DNA of 64,000 bases from an archaeon (lineage in GTDB: Archaea > Asgardarchaeota > Heimdallarchaeia > Heimdallarchaeales > Kariarchaeaceae): NCBI GenBank assembly GCA_024280435.1, contig JAJRQD010000109.1, forward strand, positions 1,879 to 65,878, given 5' to 3'. The notes beneath the pieces are model-generated. The model worked only from the letters and a program-made list of their open reading frames with translations, did not search any database and had not been told where the DNA came from. Position numbers and translations under genes: made by a program. This document shows positions 43,312 to 64,000 of the stretch, one piece after another (within the stretch, counting starts at the first letter, position 1; every line of letters begins with the position of its first letter).

Positions 43312-43397
43312 TAAAATTTATACAATTTATGGAGATATATTGGTAAAGTATATATTCAAAGGGCAGAATTACTGTTTGTCAGCAATGGTGAAATTAA

Positions 43398-44036: not shown

Positions 44037-44074
44037 AAATACTATTGGAATATCAACTGATAAATATGATTTTA

Positions 44075-46505: not shown

Positions 46506-46666
46506 GTTGTGAAATTATTTCACTAGTAATATCATTGAATTTATTTTAATACATACTCTGGACTACTTTATATTTATTGTACTATGAATTCAATCAATTT
46601 TACAATAGAATTATCATTTAACGATATAGATTTTTCTTTATAAGTAAACCTGTATATTACTACATT

Positions 46667-47005: not shown

Positions 47006-47131
47006 ATATTTCCATCTAGTATACATAATTTCTGAAAAAATAAATTAGCAATCCGGGTTACTTTTATATCTATGACATATTGAAAATGCAGAATTATTCA
47101 TCCATGTTTGTTGAAATTGATTTTATTCGGA

Positions 47132-48280
47132 TTACAGATTTGAGTAACTCTCAAATTTCAATAGAATACTGTGAGATTCATTAATTTTATTATGTAGCTG
47201 TATCATCTTATCATTGATCATACTAAGAGAATTATTGATCTCATTAGAAGTGGCAGCCACCTCTTCACTTGATGCGGAGGTCTCTTCTGATAGGCTTGAA
47301 ATATCCTCGATAGCAATTCTGAAATCATTGAACATACCTTTGATAGTGATTGAAATCTCGTTGACAACATCTTTTATTCTGTTTGCAGCCTTGTTTGATT
47401 CATCTGATAATTTTCTTACATTCTCTGCAACAACTGCAAAGCCTCTTCCATAATCACCTGCACGTGAAGCCTCTATTCCTGCATTAAGTGCAAGTACATT
47501 TGTCTGGAAAGATATATCTCCAACTCTCTTGCTCTCCTCAGTGATCATTTTTATAATATCATCAAGGGTCTGTCCACTTGCATTGAATCTTTCTGATACT
47601 TGATTCAGCATATCAGATTGCTGTGAAGAGCCATTTGCCATACTAGTTGTGGTGGCAGATATCTCCTCAATACTTGCAGTAGCCTCTTCTGATCTTGCAG
47701 TTAATTCATCTGATGTACTTTTCACATTCAATGACATATTATACAACTCACCCAGTAGGTTCTGTACTGAGATGATCATCTCATTGAAAAAATTTGCAAT
47801 GTTACCCAAAACAGGGTCATTGATTATCTTGGAATTCTCTATCTTCTCAAATTCTCCATGCTTGAATTTAATAGAAACATGATTTATCTCATCTAAAAAT
47901 TCATCCATCACATGAAATGTGGCATAAAAACCCCCAAGCCAGACGATCAGAGATGGGAAAAATGTAGGTATCCACAGTTTTAAAGCATCTGATGTGATCA
48001 CAGGATTGTTTATTCCTGTATACTCATCTATTTTACCAAAAGTTAATGCAGAGATTGTGACATTTGTAATATGAAATGTTAATTTGAAACGAAAGTCATC
48101 AGTACCAATAGTTCTGTACATATATGCAAATATAACCACTGTTATTAGCCCTGTGGAGATAAAATGATTTATCCAATTATACAGATTAATTCCATAGAAT
48201 GATCCATTTATTGATGAACTGATGATAATGTAGATATAGAAAAATGGAGCAACTAGCTCCATGTAATTATACCATTTCAT
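47132..48280 (-). CDS. Methyl-accepting chemotaxis protein-like transducer
   Basis: It has four N-terminal TM helices. The conserved signalling hairpin is present: [37 protein letters not shown]. Confidence 0.85.
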
Positions 48281-48580
48281 ATTTTAATAAATTATAACTG
48301 ATTTATTACTATTTTCATTTACTTGAATAATATAATTTCTTTATAGCGAATAAATTACTGAATATATTATTTGTTTATCTGTACGCTCTTCTATCAGAAT
48401 TTCATTGATATGTATTCCAAAAGATGTTTTCAAGAAACACCATTCAACCCGATTACTTTGATCATCTCCTTTGATCAGATAACGAATTATCATGGGTGAT
48501 CTCTGATCAGATACTGATATTCATAATTATTTATTAAAAGATACTATAAATTGCTATATTAATTTAGGGGTTGTTTGCAG

Positions 48581-51500
48581 TTAGATATTTATTTTTACTG
48601 GAATAATAAGATTTGATGTAATTAGTATGAATATCATCTCTATTTGATTATAGGAGCTATCAAATTCAATCTTATCATTAATTATTACAATAACTGAATT
48701 TGTTATCTCTTGGTTGAATGAATATATTTGATACAATTGAGAATTGATATCAGGAGATATTTCAGATGTGACAGTTGAGTTTATCTCGGTATCTGTGCTG
48801 AGATTTTCTACCTCATTAGAATCTGAATATCTATCTTCTTCTGAATTTCTATCTTCTTCAGAAGTTGAATTATACACAGTATCATTTTGATATGCTTTCT
48901 CATCTAGCTCATCAGAAAGATCTAGCTCATCCGAGATATCTGTATTATCAGAAAGATCTATATCATCCGAGATATCTGTACTATCAGAAAGATCTATATC
49001 ATCAGATAATTCGTCGTAATCGTCATATTCATAATCCAAATCATCATCATCTGCAAAATCATGCTCATCCTCATGGTCATCATCATGGTCTAATTTTATT
49101 TCCAAAGAATCGGGGATAAGATTTTTATTGGTATCTCCAGATCTAGGGTCCAAACCAATTGATAATTCAAATTTATCCGAAATTTTATCACCATCAGTAT
49201 CAAAATTACTAATGTCTGTCTTCAATGAATTTATTCTTGAAAAGCCTTCCAGACCATCAATTATGCCATCACCATCTTGATCTCCACCTCTGACAACAAT
49301 TGCAGGTAGATCAACTCTATGATCGTCATCATGGTCTTCTTCATAATGATTATGGTAATATTCATCCTCATGATCTTCTTCATGATGTTCATCATCACAG
49401 TGTTTTTCATCGTGATCATCATCACAATCAGGTCTTCTATCAAAATGTAATTTATCATTCCAACTCTCGATATACTGAAAACCCCAGTTATCAAATGATG
49501 AGCTATCAAGGAAATTATTCACTATTACACTCACCTCACCAGAATTCACAGTTAACCATGAATGTTGACCGAGATCACTTGATGTCCAGAATGCACCTGT
49601 CATCTCTCTTGTCTGAGATCTTGGATTATATGAGATACCAAAGAAATTATTATTCCAGATCACACCAAATTCAAAATCACTATTCGTAAAAGTTGATGCT
49701 GGTTGTCTGAAATTCACATAAGATCTTTTTTCCTGCCATCCACTACCTTGATTCTCAAAGAATGTGAAGCCTGGACGACGACCTAGATTGATTAATAAAT
49801 CAGCATCTCCATCATCATCATAATCCACAGCTTGTAGCTGTTTCACAACTCTTGTGAATTCATGCAGACCGATATGGCTAAGACCATACTCTACATCACC
49901 AAAATATCCTGGAATATATTCAAAATATCCATTGCTTGAATTTCCTGTGTACTGTAAATACATAAAGTTATTCTGTGTGATGAATAATAGATCATCAAAA
50001 CTATCTCCATTGAAATCAGCAGAGACAAATTCAATTACCGCATTAGATCCGAGTAGGTTCATCAATGCATCATCTATCACTGTGGTGTTGATATAATCAG
50101 TCAGCACATATTCATCTGATACAAATTTCCATATATCAATCTGATTATCTCTGTACACAAGCAACTCTGGAATACTATTTTCATATATTGATGAGAAGGT
50201 GAGCATTACTCTTCCCTGATAGTAATTATCCACATTGTATAATTCTGGAACATCCTGTATTCCTTTATTATTGGTATTGTATGGATCAAGAAGCATCTTG
50301 AAACTACCATCATAGAAATACAGATTATTTTCTGCATTATCATTTGCAGAATTACCAAAATCAGGTCCCAGCATAACTTGATCATACTTGTCAAGCTCAT
50401 CTTCTAGATTTTCAAAGCTAAATTGAGGGTTGATCCAGTTGTTAACACTCTTGTAATTAGGATTTGGAACTACATCCCAGCTACCATAATTACTCTGTGT
50501 AAATAATTGGTCCTCATATGAATTTGAAAACTCAAGCATACTTGGATCCCAACTATTAACCCTGGAATTTGAGCTGAAACCAATCATTTTACCCTCTGTG
50601 GTACTCATGAATAATACCGGTGTGTTATTATCAGGTACCTCATCAAAGAAGATACTTCTGACACTTGACATCCGGAGATTTATTCTCACAGCCTCGATTG
50701 ATTCTATCCTTAGATCAACTGTTGTGTTTGAGGATAAAGAGAGATATCTTACATAATTCCAGTGTCTCTTGGATACCATGGGATCAATATCAATATGAAT
50801 AGTCTTATTATCCTCAGACATCCATATATTTAATTTACTATCACAATGATGTTCCTCACAATCATCATCTTCTCTATCATCATCAAATTCTGAATAATCA
50901 TCATCATGCTCATCATCATGCTCATCATCATGTTCATCATCATGTTCATCATCATGCTCATCATCATGCTCATCATCAAGATCTTTCATCAGTTTTATCC
51001 GAATATCTGATAAACTACCATTAAATGCTTCTGCAAGATTGATATTTATATCAGACATTGAATTACCACCAGCTACTACTTCCTCTATGTTTCCAAAATC
51101 AACTGTGATGTTTGCACCATTACTGGCCAATGAACTGAAATGATTATCAGGTGCATTCTCAAGTCCACTCGTGAAGGGTGAGATCACATTTCCAGGATCT
51201 AACCAACTCATAGGTTCTGTAATAATACCATTGAAAGTAACATTACTTGCAGATAATAATATATCAGCATAATTGTCTATTGGATAAGCTCCGGTTCTTT
51301 CCCACAGATATGGATTTAATGTGATTCTATCAAGATAGAATTGATTGCTGACTGTATCATAATCAAGTAACATAACATCCTGTCCTCTGGCAAGTATCGC
51401 CACCTCTTCAGTACCATCCTCATCAATATCAGCAGATTCTAACTGGATGATTGATTTCCACAGAGTTGTGGTATCCTCCCATATACGCTTGAAACATAGA

Positions 51501-52426
51501 TCAAAGTTTACTTTATCATCATCATCATCATCATCATCATGAGACTTTGATTTGACAGTCTGATCACATTGATTCTTCTTTTTATCATCATCATCATCAT
51601 CATGATTAGAATTGATCACAGCAGTAGCATTACTCTTCTCATAGATCAGAATACCACCATGCTTCAATCCAATAATAATATCAAGCAAACCATTATCATT
51701 CAGATCACCTGTGGTTACTGATAATGCACGATCTTTCAGATTATCAGTTCTAAACCTCTCATTATACTGTTCCCACATACTATTCTTGGAATCAAATTGT
51801 ACGGGATCAATACCAAATATATGTACTCGGTTTTTGGATGACGCAACAATGATCTCTCTGAATCCATCATTCTCTATATCAACTATCTCTATATCCCACA
51901 TATCATTGGAGAATATAGATTTCCATACCAGATTGAATACTGTTTTGTCAATCTGTTGCTCAAATATATAGACAAATCCAGATGAACTTGCTATCGACAG
52001 ATCCAGAATACCATTGTTATCAATATCTGAGAATTCAAGATCAAGTACGTTTCCCCGGAATTTAGTCTCATCAATTCTTGTGAATAAAATATATTCCTCA
52101 GTTAAAGTATCCCATTTATAGATAAGAACAGCTTTGATCTGATCATTTGAATGAAATCTAGTACCCACTGCAAAGTATTGACCATCCTCTGTCATTGTAA
52201 CTGATTGTATCTGATCTTTTATCTCCTTATGATCTGAGCCTTTATCATCCTGTGAACTCAGTTTAAATGCAGTATCTGCACTTATAGAAGCAGATTCAGA
52301 TAAATTTCCATCTGCATTAATTAACCCTGCAGATGAACTCTGTGAAAATACAAGTATCATCATCAGAACTACTGTCAGAGTCAATTTAAGTAGATCCTTA
52401 AATTTATTAATTCTTATTTCTCTCAT
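48581..52426 (-). CDS. Giant secreted FG-GAP/integrin-alpha-like repeat protein with His/Asp/Cys-rich inserts
   Basis: It has a signal peptide (..VFSQSSSAG) and six or more FG-GAP-like Ca loops. The acidic tracts are (DDEH)n, poly-D and DCDDDHDEKHCDDEHHEEDHEDE. It has TSP3-like DTDGDKISD and a hydrophobic C-terminus. GGAGG lies 8 nt upstream of the ATG. Confidence 0.85.
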   Translation of the reverse strand: MREIRINKFKDLLKLTLTVVLMMILVFSQSSSAGLINADGNLSESASISADTAFKLSSQDDKGSDHKEIKDQIQSVTMTEDGQYFAVGTRFHSNDQIKAVLIYKWDTLTEEYILFTRIDETKFRGNVLDLEFSDIDNNGILDLSIASSSGFVYIFEQQIDKTVFNLVWKSIFSNDMWDIEIVDIENDGFREIIVASSKNRVHIFGIDPVQFDSKNSMWEQYNERFRTDNLKDRALSVTTGDLNDNGLLDIIIGLKHGGILIYEKSNATAVINSNHDDDDDDKKKNQCDQTVKSKSHDDDDDDDDKVNFDLCFKRIWEDTTTLWKSIIQLESADIDEDGTEEVAILARGQDVMLLDYDTVSNQFYLDRITLNPYLWERTGAYPIDNYADILLSASNVTFNGIITEPMSWLDPGNVISPFTSGLENAPDNHFSSLASNGANITVDFGNIEEVVAGGNSMSDININLAEAFNGSLSDIRIKLMKDLDDEHDDEHDDEHDDEHDDEHDDEHDDDYSEFDDDREDDDCEEHHCDSKLNIWMSEDNKTIHIDIDPMVSKRHWNYVRYLSLSSNTTVDLRIESIEAVRINLRMSSVRSIFFDEVPDNNTPVLFMSTTEGKMIGFSSNSRVNSWDPSMLEFSNSYEDQLFTQSNYGSWDVVPNPNYKSVNNWINPQFSFENLEDELDKYDQVMLGPDFGNSANDNAENNLYFYDGSFKMLLDPYNTNNKGIQDVPELYNVDNYYQGRVMLTFSSIYENSIPELLVYRDNQIDIWKFVSDEYVLTDYINTTVIDDALMNLLGSNAVIEFVSADFNGDSFDDLLFITQNNFMYLQYTGNSSNGYFEYIPGYFGDVEYGLSHIGLHEFTRVVKQLQAVDYDDDGDADLLINLGRRPGFTFFENQGSGWQEKRSYVNFRQPASTFTNSDFEFGVIWNNNFFGISYNPRSQTREMTGAFWTSSDLGQHSWLTVNSGEVSVIVNNFLDSSSFDNWGFQYIESWNDKLHFDRRPDCDDDHDEKHCDDEHHEEDHEDEYYHNHYEEDHDDDHRVDLPAIVVRGGDQDGDGIIDGLEGFSRINSLKTDISNFDTDGDKISDKFELSIGLDPRSGDTNKNLIPDSLEIKLDHDDDHEDEHDFADDDDLDYEYDDYDELSDDIDLSDSTDISDDIDLSDNTDISDELDLSDELDEKAYQNDTVYNSTSEEDRNSEEDRYSDSNEVENLSTDTEINSTVTSEISPDINSQLYQIYSFNQEITNSVIVIINDKIEFDSSYNQIEMIFILITSNLIIPVKINI
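50899..50978 (-). repeat. 12-bp tandem repeat x6.5 encoding (EHDD)n
   Basis: catcatcatg(c/t)t units run at 50899-50970, with a partial unit after them. Confidence 0.9.
51515..51603 (-). repeat. Two (ATC)n trinucleotide runs encoding poly-Asp
   Basis: (atc)~8.5 lies at 51515-51540 and (atc)~6.5 at 51584-51603. Confidence 0.9.
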
Positions 52427-52428
52427 AA

Positions 52429-55400
52429 TTAGGACCTCCCTGTGAATATTTTCTTCCGAATTACTGGAACTGCAACCACCCCGAGTATGCCACTACCCAC
52501 CAGAATTGCACTTATCAGACCAAACTGATCCAATAAATTAACCGGTATAGTAGCATTGACCGAGAAGATAATCACATCACGATAAATATCTCCAGAAGAT
52601 GTGGACACAAATGCCTCAAGGATATACGTACCCTCATCAAATTTTGCATCCAGATCATACCATAAGCCAGGGTTTGTCTTCTCATAGTATGATAGTGTTG
52701 TATTTGCAGAGAAAGTACCAACTATATTTCTATACCTGTACCAGGATCTATCCACATTTGTAATATTAAATACCACAATTGCCAACTCTCCATCTGAATT
52801 CTGATACTCTGTATTGGCAAACGGAGAGAGTATCATCAATGGACCCTGAAATGATGCAAGAATTGCATCCATCTCACTCTCACTAGTATATACATTGGGA
52901 TCTGACAACACTATAATCTCGAATCCATCCGAAAATGTATCATTATCACTATCTGCCCAATCTGGCCTTGTATTGTAGAGATATACCTCATCTCCATCAG
53001 AGATCGTATCTTTATCCACATCTGGATCAAATACTGCCCAGTCATTTACCTCAACAGTAGGATACTCTCCAGAATATTCTAATCCATCTTCCAATCCATC
53101 TAGATCCAGATCTAGATCCAGACCATCTATAATTCCATTATTATTGACATCATCAAAACCAATTTCAGGAGAGAAAGCAGGAAAGTTAGGCTGATATATT
53201 ACCAGCTCTGGACCGTCAGGAAGCATATCTTGATCTGTATCTGCTTCCCAAGAGTAGGTATTATAGTATTGCACAGTTATATTTCTAACGACATAATCCT
53301 TCGGAAGTATATCCCTATCAATAGTAATCTGCATAATACCACTATCTCTAATTGCATCGAAATCCACATTAGGATAATGTACAAACTCAGTCTCCGACTT
53401 TTTCAATAACTCAAGTGAATCAATTATCAAATCACCATCTGTATCTGCATCAATCGGCGATAAATCAAGATAAGTGTAATATTCATCAAAATCAAGAATC
53501 TGATCACCATCACTATCTGGATTATTTGCCTTGGATCCATTCAGAACCTCAGTTTGATCATCTACACCATCAAAATCTGTATCTCTAAGCACTGCAGATG
53601 AATTATATGGTTCTGAAATATCAACAATCAAGTTAATACCATCATCTGAAATATCAATATTTAACTCTTCCCCGTCTTCTAGCGAGTCACCATCTGTATC
53701 AGCAGAATTTGGATCTAGTGCATATGTAACTGATGCTAGACCACTGGCAAGATATATCTCCTCACCATCACTCAATCCATCAAAATCTCCATCTGGGTTA
53801 TTAGGATTGGTATTGGTATTGAATACCTCCTCATAATCATTCAGATTGAACAGATAACTACCATCTGGATTGAGAATACTATCTCTATCTGTATCTGCCT
53901 CAAGTGGTGAGGTTTGATAAACAAATATCTCATCATAATCTGAAAGTTTATCCAAATCTGTATCTGCTGAATTTGGATCTGTACCATAGATGTATATCTC
54001 ATTTCTATCCGAAATTCCATCATTATCCAGATCAGTAGAGGTTGGACTAATGCCCAATTCTACTTCCTCACCATCCAAAAATCCATCGGAATCAGTATCT
54101 TGCAGTAATGGATCGCTACCATAGATATTTACTTCATCAAAATCACTCAATCCATCAAAATCACTATCTGAGGATCTGAGGTTGGTACCAAGTACATAAT
54201 ACTCATCATAATCTGAAAGTTTGTCCAAATCTGTATCAGCAGAATTGGGATTAGAGCCCAGTAGTACCTCTAATCGATCATTTAATCCATCTCGGTCGGT
54301 ATCTGCATCGTATATATCTGTGGAATTGCTGTTTTCAAATTCATCAATTAGGCCATCATTATCAAAATCTCCAGATAATGGATCAGTGGGTATTTGATAC
54401 TGATAATAGAGTTCATATCCATCACTGACCATTACCACACCAACTCCTCCAGGACCGGTATCTGCATCAGAATCAGCCCTTGTTGGATCTGTGTAGAAAG
54501 TACGTGTAACATAATCACCACCTTCGATAATAGTTGCAGTGATACCTCTTATCTCAACACCATCTCTCATATCACCTAGATATGTTCTTGATGGTAGTAT
54601 CTCACCAGAATATGCCTGCATATATGAATCATCATCTGTATCATTATCCAATGGATGAGTATATCCTTTGTTCCAGATCATATCAGTCTCATTTGAATAT
54701 GGTACATATGGTTTATCTCCACCATAATATGGCCCATTCTTGCCTTCCTGGCCGTCCAGAAGCATATCATTATCAGTATCTGGATTCAGAGGATCTGTTT
54801 GGTTGTAATATACTTTACCACCAATTATCACTGAATTCACACTGGGTGTGATTCCAGACATGTCATATACGTAATTTATCTCAAAATAATCTGTAAGCCC
54901 ATCTCGGTCGGTATCTGCGTTAAGTGGATCTGTACCGTAGATTGATACCTCTTCATAATCAGTTAATTTATCATAATCACTGTCTTTACGCAGTGGATTT
55001 GTATTTAAAGCGATTTCAACTGAATCAATTATTCCATCTCCATCAGAATCTGGGATTGTGGGGTCTGTCATATAGAATTTCAGCTCTTCTTTGTCGCTCA
55101 GACCGTCACCATCTGTATCACTGGAGGTTCTGTGTAGAGATTGTATATCTTTGATACTATTTTTGTCATAATTAAGTACGCTCAGACTAGATCCATCTAG
55201 ACTACCGATGTTTAGGCCGGGGAATCTTCTCTCATATTCATCAGGAATACCATCATAATCGTTGTCATAGCCCATACCACCATTTTTCAGTACATCATCT
55301 CTTTTCTTGGGAGATAGATCAAATGGTCCGAATGGTTCTAGTACAGCTCTCCAACGCCATGTTTTCTTCTTGAACAGGAATTTTACTGTAATAGCAGCTT

Positions 55401-56460
55401 CTAGAATGATTAGTATTCTGAATATTATTCTGAGTGGTTGAGTTCTTCTGATGAAGTCCTGATCGAATGTCAATACTAGTCTTATTCCAGCGTAGAAACT
55501 AAGTTTAGCACTTGCGATAAATAGGTTCACCCCGATTGATAATCGTATACCTGCTTCAATCAGGAATCTTAGTATTGCGATACCACTTGCAGATGTTGTC
55601 GGGGTATCTGCTCGCATAAGTATCACCAGGTCTATTCCAAACTGAATTCGTAGTACTAATAGATCAAGACCGATATATCCTGCCAATCTGCTCATGAATC
55701 CACCTCCCAGACCTCCGGTGAATAGATCAAGTATTGTGATATCTCGATATATTCGTATACTGATTTCTAATCCCCATGCGATAACTTTCAGGAATGATTG
55801 AGAATCAAATCCATTGGCACCTAGTTCAAATAATTGTATTGCAAAGTATGCATATCCGGAAAATTCTATATTTACACCTAGTAGTGCCAGTAGTATCTCA
55901 AATATTCCACTCTCAGAGGTAGCCAGTTGTTTCAATCCAAAGTTACCAGATATCACGGGTGCGATCTTGAGGAATGATAATATTCTCTTAAGCATTCCAC
56001 CGAGATCCAGTCCACTGAGTACATTGCTTCCATCGAATAATAGTGAGATAATGAAATCTCTCAGTCCAATTCTGTCAAAATCAATGTTTGCAGTTATTTC
56101 GAAACTATATGAGAATTCAAATAATGTGAATGGTCCGAAGCCAATAGGCATCTCACCACCAATACTGAAGAATTTGAATTTATCAAACAGTACATTTAGT
56201 TTCTCAAGTAAATTATCAATTATATCAGATAGTATTGTTGCCATCCATCTTTTCAATTCATTGATTAGCCATCCAATTCCATCCTGGAAGAATTCCACTG
56301 CACTTGGAATTAGATCAATAAAGAATTTGACAGTATCAAATGCTTCTGGAGATAATAGTCCCTGTAGTGTATTGAGCACGTATGGTGTGAGATCCTGCAT
56401 TATCTGTTCTAGTGATGGTAATTCCACTTTGAATTTATCATCAACTAATCCTTTGAACAT
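52429..56460 (-). CDS. Giant thrombospondin-type-3-repeat protein with hydrophobic N-terminal domain and C-terminal TM anchor
   Basis: It has about 25 DxDxDGxxDxxE repeats and the C-terminus ILVGSGILGVVAVPVIRKK. It has no signal peptide and no SD. It is in frame with the upstream ORF across a single TAG. Confidence 0.85.
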   Translation of the reverse strand: MFKGLVDDKFKVELPSLEQIMQDLTPYVLNTLQGLLSPEAFDTVKFFIDLIPSAVEFFQDGIGWLINELKRWMATILSDIIDNLLEKLNVLFDKFKFFSIGGEMPIGFGPFTLFEFSYSFEITANIDFDRIGLRDFIISLLFDGSNVLSGLDLGGMLKRILSFLKIAPVISGNFGLKQLATSESGIFEILLALLGVNIEFSGYAYFAIQLFELGANGFDSQSFLKVIAWGLEISIRIYRDITILDLFTGGLGGGFMSRLAGYIGLDLLVLRIQFGIDLVILMRADTPTTSASGIAILRFLIEAGIRLSIGVNLFIASAKLSFYAGIRLVLTFDQDFIRRTQPLRIIFRILIILEAAITVKFLFKKKTWRWRAVLEPFGPFDLSPKKRDDVLKNGGMGYDNDYDGIPDEYERRFPGLNIGSLDGSSLSVLNYDKNSIKDIQSLHRTSSDTDGDGLSDKEELKFYMTDPTIPDSDGDGIIDSVEIALNTNPLRKDSDYDKLTDYEEVSIYGTDPLNADTDRDGLTDYFEINYVYDMSGITPSVNSVIIGGKVYYNQTDPLNPDTDNDMLLDGQEGKNGPYYGGDKPYVPYSNETDMIWNKGYTHPLDNDTDDDSYMQAYSGEILPSRTYLGDMRDGVEIRGITATIIEGGDYVTRTFYTDPTRADSDADTGPGGVGVVMVSDGYELYYQYQIPTDPLSGDFDNDGLIDEFENSNSTDIYDADTDRDGLNDRLEVLLGSNPNSADTDLDKLSDYDEYYVLGTNLRSSDSDFDGLSDFDEVNIYGSDPLLQDTDSDGFLDGEEVELGISPTSTDLDNDGISDRNEIYIYGTDPNSADTDLDKLSDYDEIFVYQTSPLEADTDRDSILNPDGSYLFNLNDYEEVFNTNTNPNNPDGDFDGLSDGEEIYLASGLASVTYALDPNSADTDGDSLEDGEELNIDISDDGINLIVDISEPYNSSAVLRDTDFDGVDDQTEVLNGSKANNPDSDGDQILDFDEYYTYLDLSPIDADTDGDLIIDSLELLKKSETEFVHYPNVDFDAIRDSGIMQITIDRDILPKDYVVRNITVQYYNTYSWEADTDQDMLPDGPELVIYQPNFPAFSPEIGFDDVNNNGIIDGLDLDLDLDGLEDGLEYSGEYPTVEVNDWAVFDPDVDKDTISDGDEVYLYNTRPDWADSDNDTFSDGFEIIVLSDPNVYTSESEMDAILASFQGPLMILSPFANTEYQNSDGELAIVVFNITNVDRSWYRYRNIVGTFSANTTLSYYEKTNPGLWYDLDAKFDEGTYILEAFVSTSSGDIYRDVIIFSVNATIPVNLLDQFGLISAILVGSGILGVVAVPVIRKKIFTGRS
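52919..55273 (-). other. Thrombospondin type-3 (Ca-binding) repeat region
   Basis: Examples are DTDGDGLSDKEE, DSDGDGIIDSVE, DTDRDGLTDYFE, DFDNDGLIDEFE, DTDSDGFLDGEE and DSDNDTFSDGFE. Confidence 0.8.
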
Positions 56461-56463
56461 TGT

Positions 56464-59400
56464 CTATGCAAGTCGAATGAAGTAAATCACTGCAAAATCA
56501 TCAATTCCTCTATCTGCAAGAGTTTTCTGTATTTTTTCCATCACAAGATTGATTGTGAACAGTCCTAGTGATCTGAGAATACCACTTATTGATGTCTCAG
56601 TATCAAATGATGAGCTTATCAGTGATAGAATGAAAAATGGTATTTCACCAACAATTAGACTAAGTCTGTCATTCTGTGTTTTGGATAGAAGTGAGGTTGG
56701 TATTCTGCTGAATAGTTCAGCAGTTACGTCTCTCAGGAATTCAGATGATTTTATTCTTGCCTCTTCTAGTGCCTGTTGTGGTGTTAATGATCCGGATGAA
56801 GCGATGATCATGGCTAGTGAGGGGGATTCCTTCAGTACTGCTAGAATATTCAATACTCCAGGTATGACAAACGTCATTATAGTCTCAATAGAAGTTCTTA
56901 CACTATCATTCACATCTTTCAGGAATAATTTCAGTCCATCTCGAATGAGAGAATCTAGATTTGCAGTTGTCAATGTCCTCAGAGGAGAATTGAAGTCTGC
57001 AATTTTACTTACCAAAAATCTTAGTATATCACCAATAAATGCTCTTGTATCAAGATCAATGGAGGTCAATCCACCAATTACAGTATCAATAATAGTATTG
57101 GCTATTGTATTCTCATTTATAGTACCATTTAGAACTGATTTTACCAGTTCCACATAATCTTTGATTTTTGATTGTAAATCAGGTGCTGATAATCCAGTAG
57201 CTGTGTATACAGAGCTGAATAATTTATCAATTGCCTCTGATATTGGGAAATTCTCCAGAAATGATTTTGCATCCTTGATTCCACCCAGTTTACCTGCGAT
57301 CCAGTATGCTAACTTGCCTATCTCAATCAATGGCTTGAATGCATCAAGATATTTCTGTATGAATGTATTGGTGTCAATTGGGTCGATAGCAAGTGGTTTG
57401 ATAAATGATGTACTGATGAAGTTAGTGCTTACCTGATCTATTTTATCAGGATTGGATGTGAATCCGCTGACACTTACTCTGATAGTATTATATCCTGTGT
57501 TAGAAGGATCTGGTGCTGAATCATTATAGTATGCCATTCCATCTATATCTTTTGAGAACATTATATTTCTGAAGTCAAAAGTATTTAGAGTTATCTGATC
57601 AACTCGCATCACTACTCTGACATCAAAAATTGATGAATTACCTGGAATTGCAAATGATGCAGATACAGGTCCATTAGATCCGGGTGCCCATGTATATGGT
57701 CCATCCACAGTGTAATTGAATGTTGATACAAGTTCAAAATTATTATTTAATCCATCCTTATCCACATACACATCAAAGAAATAATTCTCATCCAATAATC
57801 CATTATCACTTACCACATCAACAAATTCTAATTGTACAGTCACAGTATCTCCCTTGAGAAATAGTTGCTTACCCTGTCCACGTACCTGATATCCAAGCTC
57901 CTTGAAGACGATATCAATGACTGATGGTAGTGTAACCAGTTCCTGATGAGAACCTTCTATCTCATAATTTGTGGCACCAACAAGAGCTGGAGAATCTGTT
58001 GGGACTACTCCATCAAATCTGTTCAGGTACCAGGGATTTCCACCAAAGGTGATATAATTCTCTCCTGGTGGTTCCTCATATCCAAGTGCTTGTAATAATG
58101 GGCTTCCTGGTATCATATCATCAGCAGATGCAGCCCAATCGTCATAGAATAGATTTGTAGATCCTATATATGCCTCCCATGTTCCATGATTAGGTGTACC
58201 ATGCATAAATAATCTATCCACTCTTGCAGCCCAGGTATCATCAATATTTGGATCACTAGGACCTGCTTCCAGTAAATATCGGGAGATCAATCCACCATAG
58301 GAATATGCAATAATATTAATCTTTTCATTTACATCTACTCTTGCATTGATTAGATCCTCTACTTGATTTGCAAGCTGTGAGGTATTAAGATTGCCAGTAC
58401 CCAGTGTGGCATCGTATGTCAATGCCTGTGTACCGGGTAAATTATCATCAAAATCAATCACCTCAATTCCCTGAGCCTCTAGAATAGCAATCATAGTATT
58501 GAAGACAGTGGGATCACTTCTCCATCCTGGTATCATTACAACTCTTGGTACGGGTATTGCAGGACCTTTTCCCTGTGCAAAATATTCTGCCACTCCATTG
58601 GCAATTGATAGTCCAGCCTGTGTCTTATTTGCTGTGTACTCAAATTTTGCCCTGTCCTGTGGGTTGGTAATAAAACCTACCTCTACAAGTGCCTGTGGTA
58701 TTGTTGGTGTACCTCTGATGACTGCAAAATTAGCTGTTTTCACACCTCTTGGATACATATCAAGATCTGCCACCATATTGCTGTAAATCTCTGTTGCAAG
58801 GTCTCCACCATATTGATTATCTGTATGATAGTATACCTCATGTCCTCTTGCATTTGGTCTCACAGTACCATTATCAAATTTGAATGCATTGAAGTGTACA
58901 CTGATAAATGCATCTGCATAATCATTCACACCATCTAAATTTGTATCATTAGCAATTCTAGCTCTGGTTTTAAGATCATCTGAAATGCTGGCATTGAAAT
59001 TTTTATCAGTCTCTCTTGTCATCACCACATTTGCACCCAGATTTAGGAGTGCATCCTTCAATTCTAGTGATACATCAAGTGTCCAATCTTTTTCATAAAG
59101 TATCGTTCCATTTGTGTATTCAAAATATGCACCATTGTAAATACCTCCATGTCCCGGATCAACTACTATTGTTCTTCCTATAAGTGGATACAGATTTGGA
59201 ATTAACTCTGTAAATATCAGATCTGGAAGTACTTGATCAATATATTCAGATGAATCCTGTGTTTGGAATACTCCCAGCATGGATTTGAATACAGATCCAA
59301 GTACTGATTTTACTCTTCCGAGAAATGTCTGATCTGTGGAACTTGTAGTTGCAGTATTTGCAAGTGTGGATAATTGGCTCTGATTCGTTACCACTTCTTT

Positions 59401-60792
59401 AATATCAAATTTTAACCAACTTTTGAATATCTGATCAAGAAAGTTATCAAGAACTAGATTTGAAATCCAGGATAGTATAGCCTGGAATACATTCTCTCCA
59501 TCACTAATTTTCTTTATCAGTACTGCCAGTTCATCGTTAAGTATTGCCTGTGCAATTGCCACAACAGTGGAATTAGCAGGGAAAAATTCTTTTATCATTT
59601 TCAGTGAGAAGGCTATTATCTCCTCAGGTCCACCTCTTAGTGCATTGAATCCCTCAAGAGCTATCTCTACATACCTTCTGTACTCACTGAATCCTGGAAA
59701 ACGCTCAACTATTATATCAAGTGCTAATCCTAGAATATTATCTACACTGGGATCATTGATTATGCCCAGTACTTTTGGTATATATTTCATTATTTCATTT
59801 ATCTGATTAACAACTTCTGGGGATAATTCCACATATTGAACATATTTTAGTAAGATACCAAGTAGAGTATCCAGTACCTTTCCAGCAGGTCCCTCGATAC
59901 CAGTTTTAGTTGGTATATTTGCAATTGTGAAATCACTCTGTGCATTATTTAGTACCAATCCATATTCATTTTTATTGATAAGAGACTGAGTAACCGCCTC
60001 ATAGAGAGGAATAGATACACCAGCAGGAGTTAGGTAATTAGCAGTTCTTGGACTTGCATCCATGATATTATCAAATCTATCCTGTTGAGCTACTTTATCT
60101 ATCTGTCCGATAGGATTTACGGGTTCATAACTTCTCTGTACCATTTCATTGATATTCTCAGAGAAATATTTCACAACCAATGCTCTGATATGATCTGCGG
60201 ATGTTCTATATTCATCATTAGGTGCATTTTCAGCTATATAATTACCAACCAACCAGATTGCATTGACTACTGCCAATTTAGCATCTGTCATCTCAGTCTG
60301 ATCATCAACTAGAGATGCATATTGTATTGCAGCACCCAATCCAGCAGTTGCCTGTCTTGTATTTGCCATTGAAAGTATATGCTGCTTATCTGGATAATCT
60401 AAAATGTATTTGGCCAGTTCAGACCATTCATATGATTTACCACCAATAATTGGTCCATCAATATTTGTATCATATACATGAATAACTATCCAGTATGATG
60501 AATCAATACTGAGTAAATCTGTTATCTGATCAATCTCGAATAAATCAACTGGTTGATAGAATGGTGATAGGAATTGCTCGATTCCATTTGCCATATCATA
60601 AGCCTGTGTATCTTTAGAACTGTATGCAATGGCAATCTTCTTATCAAATACGGGTACAACTTTTAGTAAATCCTCTGGATCTGTAATCTTAGCAGCTTCT
60701 GCAGTATTTGCTGCTGCCTGTACAGAGTAGAAACTACTCAGTATGAGTAGAATTATAATCATTATCGTAAATGAGATTGTTTTGTTTTTCAT
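56464..60792 (-). CDS. Giant secreted protein with MurNAc-L-alanine amidase and lipase-like alpha/beta-hydrolase domains flanked by helical modules
   Basis: It has a signal peptide (..SSFYSVQAAANTAEA). For the domains see 58580..59175 and 57920..58545. It ends in TAG. Confidence 0.85.
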   Translation of the reverse strand: MKNKTISFTIMIIILLILSSFYSVQAAANTAEAAKITDPEDLLKVVPVFDKKIAIAYSSKDTQAYDMANGIEQFLSPFYQPVDLFEIDQITDLLSIDSSYWIVIHVYDTNIDGPIIGGKSYEWSELAKYILDYPDKQHILSMANTRQATAGLGAAIQYASLVDDQTEMTDAKLAVVNAIWLVGNYIAENAPNDEYRTSADHIRALVVKYFSENINEMVQRSYEPVNPIGQIDKVAQQDRFDNIMDASPRTANYLTPAGVSIPLYEAVTQSLINKNEYGLVLNNAQSDFTIANIPTKTGIEGPAGKVLDTLLGILLKYVQYVELSPEVVNQINEIMKYIPKVLGIINDPSVDNILGLALDIIVERFPGFSEYRRYVEIALEGFNALRGGPEEIIAFSLKMIKEFFPANSTVVAIAQAILNDELAVLIKKISDGENVFQAILSWISNLVLDNFLDQIFKSWLKFDIKEVVTNQSQLSTLANTATTSSTDQTFLGRVKSVLGSVFKSMLGVFQTQDSSEYIDQVLPDLIFTELIPNLYPLIGRTIVVDPGHGGIYNGAYFEYTNGTILYEKDWTLDVSLELKDALLNLGANVVMTRETDKNFNASISDDLKTRARIANDTNLDGVNDYADAFISVHFNAFKFDNGTVRPNARGHEVYYHTDNQYGGDLATEIYSNMVADLDMYPRGVKTANFAVIRGTPTIPQALVEVGFITNPQDRAKFEYTANKTQAGLSIANGVAEYFAQGKGPAIPVPRVVMIPGWRSDPTVFNTMIAILEAQGIEVIDFDDNLPGTQALTYDATLGTGNLNTSQLANQVEDLINARVDVNEKINIIAYSYGGLISRYLLEAGPSDPNIDDTWAARVDRLFMHGTPNHGTWEAYIGSTNLFYDDWAASADDMIPGSPLLQALGYEEPPGENYITFGGNPWYLNRFDGVVPTDSPALVGATNYEIEGSHQELVTLPSVIDIVFKELGYQVRGQGKQLFLKGDTVTVQLEFVDVVSDNGLLDENYFFDVYVDKDGLNNNFELVSTFNYTVDGPYTWAPGSNGPVSASFAIPGNSSIFDVRVVMRVDQITLNTFDFRNIMFSKDIDGMAYYNDSAPDPSNTGYNTIRVSVSGFTSNPDKIDQVSTNFISTSFIKPLAIDPIDTNTFIQKYLDAFKPLIEIGKLAYWIAGKLGGIKDAKSFLENFPISEAIDKLFSSVYTATGLSAPDLQSKIKDYVELVKSVLNGTINENTIANTIIDTVIGGLTSIDLDTRAFIGDILRFLVSKIADFNSPLRTLTTANLDSLIRDGLKLFLKDVNDSVRTSIETIMTFVIPGVLNILAVLKESPSLAMIIASSGSLTPQQALEEARIKSSEFLRDVTAELFSRIPTSLLSKTQNDRLSLIVGEIPFFILSLISSSFDTETSISGILRSLGLFTINLVMEKIQKTLADRGIDDFAVIYFIRLA
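57920..58545 (-). other. Alpha/beta-hydrolase (lipase/PGAP1-like) domain
   Basis: It has VVMIPGWRSDP, the nucleophile elbow IIAYSYGGLISRYL, and downstream FMHGTPNHG and GVVP..S. Confidence 0.6.
58580..59175 (-). other. N-acetylmuramoyl-L-alanine amidase (Amidase_3) domain
   Basis: It has VVDPGHGG, DVSLELKD, RARIAND, AFISVHFNAF and ALVEVGFITNPQD. All expected Zn-ligand and catalytic positions are present. Confidence 0.8.
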
Positions 60793-61225
60793 TTTAATGT
60801 AATCTCCACTAAATTAATTAGTGCATTTTTAGTACTCGAATTTTATGAGTACATTAAATTAAATTGCAATCAACATCTATATTATTTAAATTAAATGTAA
60901 AAATTAGATTTTGTTAAGTGGTTAAAACTCTCTATCTTCAATGAAATTACGAATTACAATATATTGGAATATAATAAAATTATATTTGCTATATTTTATT
61001 ATTTGTTTCAATTCTTTTATTAAATTGATAAAAAAAAATTAAAATAATTACACACAAATACATTATATAAATTTGCTTTATTTTGAATAGTAAAGGTCAG
61101 AGAATAGATTTAGTATTTATTTGATAGTTTTATGTTTTGATAAAAATGCAAAAAATATTTATTTTTAATATAAAAATATTTATTTATCATCTTGTACATA
61201 CAAATTTTAAGTTATGAATTTCACA

Positions 61226-61560
61226 CGCTCTGCTGATGACTCCATTGATTCTATTACATTCTCTGGGGCTACTTTTCCCATTATTGCTCCATTAATTTAT
61301 CTCCACAGCTATTGCACCTGTGTACTCTGTTTGCCTTATAGTTCCACAGTATGTCTGCGAGGTGTAGCCCTCATCTACAAACTCAATGTTAATTCCATAG
61401 AGCACACATTTACTCCTCAGATTATCCTTGAATTTACCATATAGTATTTTGGGCTCTGTCAGCAACAGTGAAATATTGATAAAGTGAAATTAAATAGTAT
61501 GATACACAATCTTCATTCACGCTTATTCAGCAAGAAATCATTGTTTTCCAGGAAATAAAA
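61226..61560 (-). pseudogene. tnpB: Decayed IS200/IS605-family TnpB fragment
   Basis: The minus-strand frames read ..LENNDFLLNK.., ..YGKFKDNLRSKCVLYGINIEFVDEGYTSQT.. and ..RCNSCGDKL... These are interrupted by stops and frameshifts. The plus-strand ORF 61214..61444 is its antisense shadow. Confidence 0.5.
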
Positions 61561-61700
61561 GCTAATTTCTGTACAATGATAAGAGTTTACTTGAGAAAAA
61601 TAATAAATGAAATTCTTTATTCATTAAATAACTATCAATTATTAATTAAAAATACTAAATTTCTCATTAATATTTATATAATTTACCCAAATTTACAAAT

Positions 61701-61892
61701 GTGGAAAATATAAAAACTGTTTTCTGGAATAATGTTACTTCTAAAGTGAAAAGAGAGAATGATAATTTTTCTGAGAAACTTGTTGATAAGATGAAAATAT
61801 TATATTCTAGAGAAGGAATTAATGGGGTAAAGGAACTATTTGATGAGTTAGATAGATCTGTTGATATTGGGAGAATTATAAATGAAGATTAG
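61701..61892 (+). CDS. Small hypothetical protein overlapping the start of the ATPase gene
   Basis: The 63-aa ORF has a GTG start. Its last 11 nt overlap the ATG at 61882. Confidence 0.4.
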   Translation: MENIKTVFWNNVTSKVKRENDNFSEKLVDKMKILYSREGINGVKELFDELDRSVDIGRIINED

Positions 61893-64000
61893 AGAGATTT
61901 CACTTGAGAATTTCAGATCGTTCAGTTCGATACAGGTTCAATTACCACAGATACCAATACTTGTGATATATGATAGTAACGGCAGTGGAAAAACCACATT
62001 ACTAGAAGGCATTATTTTTGGTGTAAAGGGAGAGATTGAGGCATATAAATCAAGTGAGTATGGTTCAATTGATGCTCTTTATAATTTAAGAGAGACTAGA
62101 AATAAGAGAATCATCTCGAGTATTTTACTAGAGGATAAAGAAGGATCTGTCTTGATAGAGGCTAATCGTCCTAAGAGGAAAAGAACATACCTGACTAAGA
62201 GTAATAAATTTGATATAAAATTCAAGGTCAATGAAGAAAATAAATCATTGCAAGAGTTTCAAGAAATATGTGATAATTATCTTGGAATTGATTATAATAT
62301 GTTTCCTCTTGCTAACTTTCTATCACAGAATGTAATTAATGATGTACTTGTGTCTGATGCAAAGGTGAGAGGTGAGGTCTTTAGTAAATTATTATCCACT
62401 GATTGGATAAATTCAATAATCGATTATATCAGCTCAAATATCACCAATATTAGAAAAAGAAAAAAGGTATTAGAGAGTAAATGGGAGAACCTCAATCTGA
62501 TATTGAAAAATACTCAACTAGATAGTTTGTATCAACAAATTATGGAAAATGTGAAATTACTTATCAACAAAGGAATCACTCTTCAAGAAAATTCAAAGGT
62601 TAATCCAATAGATATCAATTCAAGAATAAAAACCATTGCAGAGATACTGAGCATCAATGAGATCACAGAATACCTTTCAACAAATGACATTGACAATGCA
62701 CTTGGTAAAACAAGAAGAGAAAAATTTGTTAAAAAAATATACAAATCAATAAATGACTTGAAAGTATCCTCTAGTGTGAAAGAAAAAAGTGTAGAGAATA
62801 TGAGTACAGTTATTTCTGAGATAAAAGATAATATTAAACAGAAATCATTATCTGAGAAATTATTAATTAGGATAAAAAATGATATCAATAAAATAGAAGT
62901 GAATATCAATAAAATAAGCGATATTAAGCAGAATATAAATGCTAAAATAATTGATGTGAATGAAGAATTAGATATTGTTACAAGAAAAAATAAAGAGATT
63001 AAAAAAATTGAGGGGGATATTAATAGAATTGACAAAAAATATGGTAATATTGAGAAAATACAATTGTTGAAAATAGAGCTCACAGATAATATTGATGAGA
63101 AATCTGATGAGATAGTAAATATTGAGAAAATAATTCCAATTATCAATAATACTGAAAGAAAAATAACTAGGAACAAAAAGGAATATACTATATTGGAAGA
63201 GAATATAGAAAGATTAGAATTGGAGTATTCTGCAGCTGAACTGGTAGAAAAATGCAATTATATTGAAAAAGAATTGAAAGAAATTGAGATAGTAGAGAAG
63301 ATAGATACAGCAGATCTTAAACTATATAACCAATTAATAATGAATGAGGCAGATGAAGAGACAATCAAAAATATAATTCAAGGAATTAAAAATGAGGTCA
63401 ATAAGATCGATTACAGATCTAGAATTTTCGAGCTTGAAAAATTCATAGTATCAAAGGAAAATAATAAAAATAAAGAAATTGATTCAATTACTGAGAATAT
63501 TGCGGAAATCAAGGATAAACTTACCAAAGATACTGAAATTAGAAATGAATTATTAGATAAAAAAGATACTGTTGATAAAAATATAGATAAACAGTTGAGT
63601 ATTTCTGATAAAAGTAAACTAAACTATTTCATTATTGCAATATCATTGGCTATATCATTAGCAGGTATTTTTGGAATAAAGTTCCTATTATTATTTTTAT
63701 TTCCAGGAATAATATTCCTTGGACTTCAATACAATATAATCTCACCCACTCCTTTATACGGATTTATTCCATTAAAATATAGACTAGCTCAATTTGAGAA
63801 GGATCAATCAGAAATAATGAATAAAATAGAGATTGTTGATGAGAGGATAATACATATTGAGGATAAACTCAGATTTTACAGTGATCAGCTAACTGAGCTG
63901 AATAAAATGAAATACAGCCCACCTGCATGGATTAATCAAATTGATCCAGAATTGATGATAAAAGAATACAGTAAATTTGAGAAAATAAGTTCTGAGCTGA
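61882..64000 (+). CDS. Rad50/SbcC/SMC-like ATPase (N-terminal head, long coiled coil, internal TM hairpin); 3' end outside the window
   Basis: I read the frame codon by codon from ATG 61882 and found no stop to position 64000 (706 or more codons). It begins MKIREISLENFRSF...IYDSNGSGKTTLLEGI (Walker A). A Lys/Glu/Asn/Ile-rich heptad-like region follows, then LNYFIIAISLAISLAGIFGIKFLLLFLFPGIIFLGL. GGGAGA lies 7 nt upstream. It is absent from the ORF track, presumably because it is open-ended. Confidence 0.8.
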   Translation, partial: MKIREISLENFRSFSSIQVQLPQIPILVIYDSNGSGKTTLLEGIIFGVKGEIEAYKSSEYGSIDALYNLRETRNKRIISSILLEDKEGSVLIEANRPKRKRTYLTKSNKFDIKFKVNEENKSLQEFQEICDNYLGIDYNMFPLANFLSQNVINDVLVSDAKVRGEVFSKLLSTDWINSIIDYISSNITNIRKRKKVLESKWENLNLILKNTQLDSLYQQIMENVKLLINKGITLQENSKVNPIDINSRIKTIAEILSINEITEYLSTNDIDNALGKTRREKFVKKIYKSINDLKVSSSVKEKSVENMSTVISEIKDNIKQKSLSEKLLIRIKNDINKIEVNINKISDIKQNINAKIIDVNEELDIVTRKNKEIKKIEGDINRIDKKYGNIEKIQLLKIELTDNIDEKSDEIVNIEKIIPIINNTERKITRNKKEYTILEENIERLELEYSAAELVEKCNYIEKELKEIEIVEKIDTADLKLYNQLIMNEADEETIKNIIQGIKNEVNKIDYRSRIFELEKFIVSKENNKNKEIDSITENIAEIKDKLTKDTEIRNELLDKKDTVDKNIDKQLSISDKSKLNYFIIAISLAISLAGIFGIKFLLLFLFPGIIFLGLQYNIISPTPLYGFIPLKYRLAQFEKDQSEIMNKIEIVDERIIHIEDKLRFYSDQLTELNKMKYSPPAWINQIDPELMIKEYSKFEKISSEL

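Follow-up and report, generated by a model that had tools for sequence, protein, structure and literature searches.

A probable surface module of two genes, conserved in Asgard archaea, with a candidate murein amidase and a lipase-like hydrolase inserted into the head of a giant protein with a predicted membrane anchor

To our knowledge, the surface molecules with which archaea of the Asgard group touch bacteria have hardly been described. In this study, we have analyzed a stretch of 64,000 nucleotides (the window; positions 1,879 to 65,878 of contig JAJRQD010000109.1, assembly GCA_024280435.1) from an archaeon of the Kariarchaeaceae (Heimdallarchaeia), and in particular a locus of giant surface proteins that is encoded on its minus strand (48581-60792). 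The locus appears to be a two-gene module: The first gene would encode an anchored protein of about 2,800 amino acids with an Amidase_3 domain, a lipase-like alpha/beta-hydrolase and a C2-like beta-sandwich inserted into its head, and the second a beta-propeller partner. We estimate a probability of about 55% for the reading as a whole, i. e. for a two-gene surface module with a tethered enzyme head that acts on bacterial envelopes.

The preliminary description of this DNA had proposed an operon of three giant proteins. The three open reading frames (ORFs) were reproduced exactly: ORF1 (56464-60792, 1442 amino acids), ORF2 (52429-56460, 1343 amino acids) and ORF3 (48581-52426, 1281 amino acids) are all encoded by the minus strand; 3 nt lie between ORF1 and ORF2, and 2 nt between ORF2 and ORF3. 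The count of three proteins, however, turned out to be wrong: ORF1 and ORF2 share the same reading frame, and only a TAG codon (56464..56466, minus) and one Thr codon lie between them. The junction reads FIRLA-TAG-ACA-ATG-TTC in the window and FLQMA-Q-S-M-F in the related protein P0002. The sister protein P0184, which falls into the same 90%-identity cluster as ORF1 plus ORF2, is encoded in a second metagenome-assembled genome (MAG; assembly GCA_024278115.1, contig JAJRTV010000201.1, locus L014) as one uninterrupted ORF of 2,777 amino acids. It differs from the read-through translation of the window at 5 of 2,777 positions, and one of these is a glutamate (GAG) in place of TAG. P0002 has a glutamine codon (CAG) at this position, and the codons of the relatives are CAG, AAT or others. 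The search with ORF1 yielded only two other protein clusters, P0002 (2179 amino acids) and P0003 (2171 amino acids), both of them single ORFs, and four further loci from Asgard MAGs are uninterrupted across the junction as well. In P0002, the N-terminal module is directly followed by the C-terminal helical module and then, without a break, by a full-length equivalent of ORF2 (53% identity over 1351 columns). ORF1 and ORF3 are preceded by Shine-Dalgarno motifs (GGAG and GGGAGGT, respectively), whereas inspection of the upstream region and of the hydropathy profile revealed neither such a motif nor a signal peptide for ORF2. Since the two ORFs are in the same frame and separated by a single TAG that is GAG in the sister strain, and since the relatives have single ORFs, we conclude that ORF1 and ORF2 are one gene (gene 1, ancestrally 52429..60792, minus) and that the locus comprises two genes rather than three. 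The intact product of gene 1 would be a type-I membrane protein of about 2,787 amino acids that starts with a signal peptide and is anchored by a transmembrane helix at its C-terminus.

The TAG goes back either to a nonsense mutation at the level of the strain or to an error of sequencing or of the consensus. The window and the sister locus are 99.75% identical over 14.6 kb of DNA. The 17 codon differences between the two strains in gene 1 are made up of 12 synonymous and 5 non-synonymous ones, and the four differences 3' of the TAG are all synonymous. A second lesion is absent from the 8.3 kb of gene 1, and the intact allele is one base away. This mainly synonymous change, the insert included, indicates purifying selection on gene 1. 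Pyrrolysine incorporation or another programmed read-through of the TAG was considered and rejected because it is not needed as an explanation: GAG replaces the TAG in the sister strain, the in-frame TAG is not conserved in the relatives, and TAG is otherwise a normal stop codon that terminates 5 of the 43 ORFs of the window. Among the Asgard archaea, the pyrrolysine machinery has been reported in the Sifarchaeia only.

The scaffold encoded by gene 1 can be followed from end to end (all coordinates on the minus strand). It starts with a signal peptide (ORF1 residues 1-28, 60709..60792) that has a hydrophobic segment at residues 3-28, ends with SVQAAA and is preceded by the GGAG motif. The N-terminal head module (residues 29-534, 59191..60708), first alpha/beta and then helical, shares 42% identity with residues 3-510 of P0002; it is present in most representatives of the family and is a scaffold rather than an enzyme. 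The C-terminal helical head module (residues 1145-1442, 56467..57360) is 34% identical to residues 534-830 of P0002, where it comes straight after the N-terminal module. The next part, a hydrophobic domain of about 395 amino acids (ORF2 residues 1-395, 55276..56460), is the hallmark of the family; in the AlphaFold2 model (pLDDT 72), a long helix leads into beta-hairpins of great length, and a Foldseek search with it gave weak matches to outer membrane beta-barrels and lipid-binding sheets (E >= 1e-3, TM-score <= 0.37) that do not allow an assignment. It is followed by an array of TSP3-type calcium-binding repeats (ORF2 residues ~396-1190, 52891..55275), presumably an extended stalk. The TSP3_bac profile (PF18884) scores 71.2 bits (cutoff 25), and there are 21 strict DxDxDxxxDxxE motifs plus degenerate copies, about 25 repeats altogether. 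The chain ends with a membrane-proximal beta-rich region, a transmembrane helix and a short basic tail (52432..52890), an arrangement that is conserved in P0002; according to the hydropathy profile, the helix spans ORF2 residues 1312-1335 (52456-52527) and is followed by RKK. The signal peptide and the two helical modules of ORF1 as well as the hydrophobic domain, the repeats and the C-terminal anchor of ORF2 had all been noticed before, and our analysis agrees on each of them.

This scaffold defines a family of its own. A sequence search of the PDB detected no relatives of the head module, and in sequence and structure searches the recognizable relatives of the head modules and the hydrophobic domain were confined to the family itself. 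An exhaustive search with the first 400 residues of ORF2 identified 47 representatives among 1.84 billion (at the level of 50%-identity clusters), most of them 2,050-2,300 amino acids long and with the hydrophobic domain at about residue 800-950. A metagenome scan with an alignment of the conserved domain returned zero confirmed loci.

Residues ~535-1144 of ORF1 are missing from the relatives, and P0002 has a short Gly/Ser-rich linker at this place. Searches with the insert alone divide it into two parts, residues 535-740 and 745-1117. Judging from these alignments, the amidase, the hydrolase and the sandwich (residues ~535-1117, about 600 amino acids) are a lineage-specific insertion into the loop between the two helical head modules, and this cassette is of mixed origin: It seems to combine a bacterial-type Amidase_3 domain with a copy of a secreted enzyme that occurs on its own in Asgard archaea. 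The GC content at third codon positions is 0.24-0.25 in both parts of the insert and 0.25 in the host genes, and the sister assembly contains the same insert; it is therefore regarded as native, and an assembly chimera or recent foreign DNA as its source was rejected. The conservation of the neighborhood, which had been suggested as a check, gave a divided answer, as the scaffold gene and its FG-GAP partner are conserved but the enzyme cassette is lineage-specific: About 45 other representative relatives lack the enzymes, and the view that these are part of a conserved system had to be abandoned.

The first part of the insert (ORF1 residues 535-740, 58573..59190, minus) is an Amidase_3 domain similar to CwlD, LytH and CwlV, as judged from Pfam and PDB alignments. 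The Pfam profile (PF01520) matches residues 542-735 with E = 5.7e-38 and 131.1 bits (cutoff 27) and is covered from position 1 to 173 of 174. The domain could be aligned to the structures 4rn7, 7tj4, 5j72, 7rag and 1jwq, which represent the CwlD, LytH, Cwp6 and CwlV types. We propose H548, E567, H633 and E704 as the catalytic residues: The first three are invariant in 21 of 21 aligned amidases, and E704 corresponds to the conserved Glu in all three PDB alignments displayed (4rn7, 7tj4, 5j72). Thus, the His-Glu-His set of zinc ligands and the catalytic Glu are retained in the sequence alignment, and the earlier statement that the Amidase_3 core is intact holds. The long regulatory insertion is absent from the domain in the PDB alignments. 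The best matches of the amidase part are bacterial, with at most 42% identity, and those with a name belong to the Bacillota (Flavonifractor, Bacillus, Pectinatus). The best NCBIfam match is the CwlD equivalog TIGR02883, with 106.5 bits against a cutoff of 221.55; the domain is thus CwlD-like but not CwlD.

The second part consists of a lipase-like alpha/beta-hydrolase (ORF1 residues ~745-970, 57883..58560, minus) with the nucleophile elbow A-Y-S831-Y-G-G and the putative triad S831, D927 and H949, and of a C2-like beta-sandwich (residues ~975-1117, 57442..57870, minus). The three triad residues are invariant in the 13 aligned sequences. Foldseek relates the hydrolase with probability 1.00 to many alpha/beta-hydrolases, among them esterases, a thioesterase and the phospholipase PlaB, and in a PDB profile search with the hydrolase family the best matches were two 'putative lipase' structures (7v3k and 7x2p) and LipA/EstA of Bacillus subtilis. 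The fold that the preliminary description had proposed for this region, an alpha/beta-hydrolase with the elbow AYSYGG and a beta-rich part behind it, has thus been recovered. The isolated domain scores 32.9 bits for DUF7379 (cutoff 33), 20.9 for DUF676 (cutoff 20.3) and 12.7 for Lipase_2 (cutoff 20.3), and with the full-length ORF1 the scores are 31.3 for DUF7379 and 20.0 for DUF676, with the matches around residues 803-874. Since the scores for the named lipase families of Pfam are at or below threshold, we call the domain lipase-like and do not place it in one of these families. Over residues 745-1117, there is 50-57% identity to free-standing secreted Asgard proteins of about 530 amino acids (P0004-P0014) that carry a signal peptide and the elbow AHSMGG, and the hydrolase in the window starts where the mature chain of these proteins starts. 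At least one of them is encoded on a 463-kb Heimdallarchaeota contig close to archaeal S8e, SRP19 and Gar1. In the AlphaFold2 model of the whole insert (mean pLDDT 69), the hydrolase and the sandwich are modelled with good confidence; the blocks of the sandwich mostly have pLDDT values of 75-93, and one has 58. The sandwich resembles C2 domains (9zk1, the C2 domain of PLC-delta) with a target TM-score of about 0.5-0.55 and a Foldseek probability of 1.00, and it is co-linear with P0004-P0014, which indicates that it was inherited jointly with the hydrolase from the free-standing family.

A different enzyme seems to occupy the same loop in another member of the family. In those of the 47 representatives in which both ends can be mapped, 300-345 amino acids lie between the N-terminal module and the hydrophobic domain; the exceptions are a few shorter variants that lack the C-terminal module and P0127 (2,800 amino acids), with about 710. 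The extra ~400 amino acids of P0127 start directly after the end motif of the N-terminal module (...ETLSEFIPSTLF; the window equivalent is ...DLIFTELIPNLY). They contain an NlpC/P60 domain (PF00877, 33.8 bits against a cutoff of 23) with intact Cys and His motifs (FDCSGLVWY, HHVGIYVGH, EANGH) and weak PDB matches to wall hydrolases of the Tn916 type. NlpC/P60 is another classical family of peptidoglycan hydrolases. A stretch that resembles SH3b was seen in the insert by eye only, without support from hidden Markov models. Of the 13.4-kb contig of P0127, a 3.2-kb fragment that covers the first 287 residues was recovered. The product of the gene upstream of P0127 (L013, 940-2118) is a coiled-coil protein with a membrane anchor and a core motif similar to that of transglutaminases (GDCEDMAILLCSMIR); a counterpart of this gene was not found upstream of gene 1 in the window.

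ORF3 (48581..52426, minus), with the ribosome-binding site GGGAGGT of its own, encodes an FG-GAP/VCBS-type beta-propeller protein. It has an N-terminal hydrophobic signal segment and a weakly hydrophobic C-terminus, and its Pfam scores are 40.1 bits for FG-GAP (cutoff 22.1) and 33.9 bits for FG-GAP_3 (cutoff 26.9). Four blades with strict and about six with relaxed calcium loops can be recognized, in addition to two TSP3 repeats and seven His/Asp/Cys-rich runs that are distributed over about four inserts, in agreement with what had been described for this protein. The labels 'integrin-alpha-like' and 'thrombospondin' are justified only in part: The FG-GAP and TSP3 repeats are real, but both types are widespread in prokaryotes and are no evidence of an adhesion of the eukaryotic kind. 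Integrin leg or beta-subunit domains and VWA domains did not appear in the Pfam output, and a sequence search of the PDB detected no relatives of ORF3. In comparison with the sister locus (L014, 13329-17216), there is an indel of 14 amino acids, two DDHDEKH units, in a His/Asp-rich insert at about residue 1002 (at about nt 49420); the inserts of ORF3 therefore behave as length-variable tandem repeats.

Wherever the flanking sequence of a relative is long enough, an FG-GAP gene comes next after the scaffold gene (L001-L005, L011 and L014), and ORF3 is 35% identical over 1,138 amino acids to the protein encoded downstream of P0002. In P0150 (4,348 amino acids), the scaffold is fused with its FG-GAP propeller partner into one ORF, and this link of the Rosetta-stone type argues that the two act together. 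Taken together, these arrangements identify the locus as a surface module of two genes that is conserved in Asgard archaea, as far as can be judged from the genomes. The size of the partner varies (1,295, 1,303, 2,258 and 2,833 amino acids), and the largest one (L003, 16591-25092) is more than twice as long as ORF3. A conserved gene upstream of the scaffold gene was looked for in the relatives, and none was found. Wider synteny based on a pair of ABC exporters was considered and left unused, as the proteins are 40% identical and the orientation of the genes differs.

The archaeal nature of the DNA, which had been assumed before, was borne out. Dense GTPase and LRR gene content is typical for Asgard genomes. 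The window encodes four GTPases of the Ras family (E = 1e-15 to 2e-46) and four leucine-rich repeat (LRR) proteins, in addition to a methyl-accepting chemotaxis protein (MCP) and PAS histidine kinases, and in species-representative genomes the loci of the relatives come solely from MAGs labelled Ca. Heimdallarchaeota or 'archaeon'. Because of these GTPases and LRR proteins and the labels of the relatives, an Asgard host is well supported, and such a host should lack murein.

With the folds and catalytic residues intact and in a host that should be free of murein, a role at bacterial envelopes seems to be the most economical reading, and this idea is supported by P0127, which carries a different peptidoglycan hydrolase domain at the same loop. 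We suggest that the signal peptide is cleaved and that the chain would be outside the cell up to the C-terminal transmembrane helix, in the order of signal peptide, two-module head of about 830 amino acids, hydrophobic beta domain, TSP3 stalk and transmembrane anchor. The TSP3 array on the membrane side would form a calcium-stiffened stalk with the head and its cassette at the distal end, and the propeller protein ORF3 is probably bound to the head. When the head meets a bacterium or debris of bacterial origin, the amidase would cut the stem peptides off the N-acetylmuramic acid residues of the glycan strands, and the esterase/lipase, placed by the C2-like domain, would attack ester-linked envelope lipids. 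The surface location, the orientation, the substrates, the complex with ORF3 and the biological role are what we infer. Killing, feeding on prey or necromass, and the remodelling of a syntrophic partner would all be compatible with the data.

Several observations weigh against this proposal. The copy of gene 1 in the window is broken by the TAG, and ORF2 alone, as judged from its N-terminus, could not be exported. The enzyme cassette is known from two near-identical MAGs only, and the NlpC/P60 case rests on one metagenomic protein of unverified origin. The peptidoglycan-binding domains LysM, SH3b, PG_binding, SPOR, AMIN and CW_binding were undetected with the Pfam and NCBIfam profiles. The nearest solved amidases, CwlD and LytH, presumably depend on partners and have specialised roles, and a strong autonomous lysis is not guaranteed. 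The amidase half of the AlphaFold2 model is poor (pLDDT of about 30 at residues 118-171 of the insert) and its alignment is locally misaligned; the C-terminal half of the amidase was still misaligned in the trimmed alignment of the insert. As for the hydrolase, the elbow is AYSYGG in the window and AHSMGG in all 12 homologues, and the scores for the named lipase families are near or below the cutoffs. Finally, genes for ester lipids are present in some Asgard MAGs (PMC9723677), and the contig of one relative encodes a PlsY-type glycerol-3-phosphate acyltransferase (L003, 7565-8236), an enzyme of bacterial-type ester-lipid synthesis. Such genes weaken the assumption that the host would be immune to its own lipase.

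The alternatives differ in what they make of the gene, of the enzymes and of their substrates. Taken literally, the annotation offers three ORFs, gaps of 3 and 2 nt and a domain content as described, in line with an operon whose co-transcribed genes would encode three distinct giant surface proteins of a grip-and-lyse apparatus. Yet one TAG in a common frame is all that divides ORF1 from ORF2, the 99.75%-identical strain has a single ORF, the junction is unbroken in every relative that could be read there, and nearly all full-length representatives have the hydrophobic domain about 800-950 amino acids from their N-terminus. Together with the lack of a signal peptide and a ribosome-binding site for ORF2, this refutes the number of genes and makes the operon highly improbable. 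The same TAG may instead mark a fresh pseudogene: The stop would truncate the protein, leaving a soluble ORF1 product at best, ORF2 would be untranslated or trapped in the cytoplasm, and the locus as sequenced would be non-functional. The use of TAG as a genuine stop in the window, the restriction of reported pyrrolysine machinery to the Sifarchaeia and the missing export and translation signals of ORF2 are in line with this view, which we regard as unlikely for the locus, though slightly less so than the other three alternatives. Against it, a single base separates the window from the intact allele, no other lesion has accumulated in 8.3 kb, and the TAG could equally be an error of the MAG consensus or of sequencing; in any case, the nature of the intact gene would be unaffected.

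The other two alternatives accept the intact gene and concern the activity of the cassette. It might be a module for adhesion or recognition, in which the amidase fold serves as a peptidoglycan-binding lectin and the C2-like domain and the hydrolase bind lipids, so that a syntrophic partner is held without being degraded. The remaining protein indeed consists of adhesion-type repeats (TSP3, and FG-GAP in the partner), the elbow departs from the consensus of its family, and the relatives of the CwlD/LytH type are, as we assume, weak amidases by themselves. However, all four catalytic positions of the amidase and the Ser-Asp-His triad are kept, the change between the strains is mainly synonymous, the insert included, and P0127 retains the Cys and His motifs of its NlpC/P60 domain, and a merely binding cassette is thus improbable in our opinion. 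About as improbable is the idea that the enzymes act on substrates of non-bacterial origin, such as surface glycoproteins of the host itself, lipid-modified proteins or dissolved amide and ester compounds, and that the likeness to wall hydrolases is merely ancestral. The Amidase_3, NlpC/P60 and alpha/beta-hydrolase folds do accept other amides and esters (see also PMC12352652), the profile searches detected no wall-binding domain, and the family of free-standing hydrolases is widespread in Asgard genomes without a neighboring amidase. This idea has to account for two different classical families of wall hydrolases at one loop, which is hard to explain without peptidoglycan, and for the 131 bits on a model that was built from murein amidases.

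If the tethered enzyme head on bacterial envelopes is the correct reading, it is tempting to go further and to speculate that the scaffold and its FG-GAP partner are an Asgard-specific surface organelle, with the loop of the head as a plug-in site for hydrolases of bacterial envelopes, Amidase_3 and lipase-C2 here and, independently, NlpC/P60 elsewhere. Relatives of the ancestor of eukaryotes would then possess a contact-dependent and self-safe device to breach, kill or feed on bacteria that they hold. We consider this extension tentative and rather doubtful. What the locus does provide is a concrete and testable candidate: an anchored giant protein with two enzymes that have bacterial compounds, namely murein and probably ester lipids, as their natural substrates. 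Should the enzymes be active, the recently recognized anti-bacterial wall hydrolases of archaea would extend to the Asgard group and to a format that is tethered and depends on contact. The scaffold family with its ~47 representatives would gain a first functional handle, and a pair of domains for direct expression and assay would be at hand. If the enzymes are inactive, the locus is still a clear case of domain insertion into a lineage-specific surface protein of archaea.

The claim that no system of this kind had been described can be upheld only in part: The architecture and the Asgard host are new, but bactericidal peptidoglycan hydrolases (PMC12352652) and a bactericidal phospholipase (bioRxiv 10.64898/2026.06.10.730825) of archaea have been published. 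Strock et al. (2025, PLoS Biol, PMC12352652) described archaeal peptidoglycan hydrolases that kill bacteria; their survey counted only enzymes with a recognized wall-binding domain, and the text does not mention Asgard archaea. The protein in the window shares with these hydrolases a murein-free archaeal host, a horizontally acquired and exported bacterial wall hydrolase, a patchy distribution and the shuffling of domains. It differs from them in that it has no recognized binding domain, so that it falls outside the definition of the modular archaeal hydrolases (a catalytic plus a recognized wall-binding domain), in that the enzyme sits in a loop of a membrane-anchored scaffold of ~2,800 amino acids, and in its lipase-like partner. 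Cinquedea of Haloferax larsenii is a secreted bactericidal phospholipase of the alpha/beta-hydrolase type with homologues in DUF726 or DUF900 (bioRxiv 10.64898/2026.06.10.730825). Both are exported archaeal alpha/beta-hydrolases with an X-H/Y-S-X-G elbow and Ser-Asp-His, and the hydrolase in the window may likewise attack ester-linked bacterial lipids. In contrast to cinquedea, this putative enzyme matches DUF7379, DUF676 and Lipase_2, is tethered and fused to an amidase, and is followed by the C2-like sandwich; a match to DUF726 or DUF900 was not obtained even at E <= 1.

Among bacterial enzymes, the Amidase_3 proteins CwlD, LytH and CwlV of the Bacillota (7rag, 7tj4, 1jwq, 4rn7) share the fold and, by alignment, the catalytic positions with the domain in the window, as well as the absence of a long autoinhibitory insertion; they are small membrane-anchored or wall-bound enzymes, whereas the domain in the window belongs to a giant archaeal surface protein. 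B. subtilis lipase A/EstA (lipase class 2, AHSMG elbow, 1i6w) is matched by the profile, and its elbow recurs in the free-standing Asgard homologues (AHSMGG); however, with E-values of 3e-7 to 1e-2 the match is weak and restricted to the N-terminal half, and the window has the elbow AYSYGG and the additional C2-like domain. The Myxococcus proteins CglD and MtsD, the bacterial FG-GAP/VCBS propellers and the eukaryotic thrombospondins and integrin alpha subunits have in common with the locus that TSP3_bac and FG-GAP calcium-binding repeats occur in large extracellular proteins, but the window scores far below the cutoffs for both CglD and MtsD; in the case of CglD (NF033765), ORF2 reaches 126.6 bits against a cutoff of 400, and the likeness is confined to the repeat region. 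The combination of a wall amidase with an esterase or lipase, which hits two layers of the envelope, is also known from the Tae amidases and Tle lipases of type VI secretion systems and from LysA and LysB of mycobacteriophages. Those proteins are separate and are injected or released, whereas here both activities would reside in one tethered archaeal polypeptide, and the homology is at the level of superfamilies only. What is new is that the host belongs to the Asgard group, that the format is a tethered one on a giant scaffold specific to the lineage, and that an amidase and a lipase-like enzyme are paired in one cassette. There is also a hint of another novelty, namely that the same loop may accept different wall hydrolases. 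Literature searches for Asgard together with amidase, and for Asgard together with FG-GAP or integrin, retrieved nothing relevant. Cultured Lokiarchaeia have no S-layer and display unidentified 'complex surface proteins'.

The remaining part of the window (GC content of about 30%) contains no genes for rRNA, tRNA or ribosomal proteins in its 64 kb. The Ras-family GTPases are encoded at 30304-30870, 31894-32457, 40278-40868 and 40959-41576, and genes for LRR proteins are located at 11312-11896, 41573-42379 and 45225-46505; the third and the fourth GTPase gene are directly followed by a gene for an LRR protein whose start overlaps the stop of the GTPase gene (41573-41576). The MCP gene (47132-48280, minus) lies 300 nt downstream of ORF3, an order of genes that the sister strain shares and the more distant relatives lack. 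The identity to the sister locus L014 is uneven: It is 99.75% for the locus of the giant genes (49377-64000) and 96.6-97% for the LRR/MCP region (42540-49422), and recombination or a local sweep may account for this. A scan for sigma-70 promoters and terminators gave counts at or below the shuffled expectation, with a model that is unsuited to archaeal promoters. In the last part of the window (62000-64000), the GC skew is +0.24 and the AT skew +0.22, and the sole long ORF (62583-63257, minus) is of low complexity (rich in Ser, Ile, Leu and Phe) and probably spurious. Just upstream of gene 1, a short ORF (61292-61465, minus) ends with ...GINIEFVDEGYTSQTYCGTIRQ..., similar to the C-terminal zinc finger of a TnpB/IS605-family protein; it is probably the remnant of a transposon, and the sister strain has it as well.

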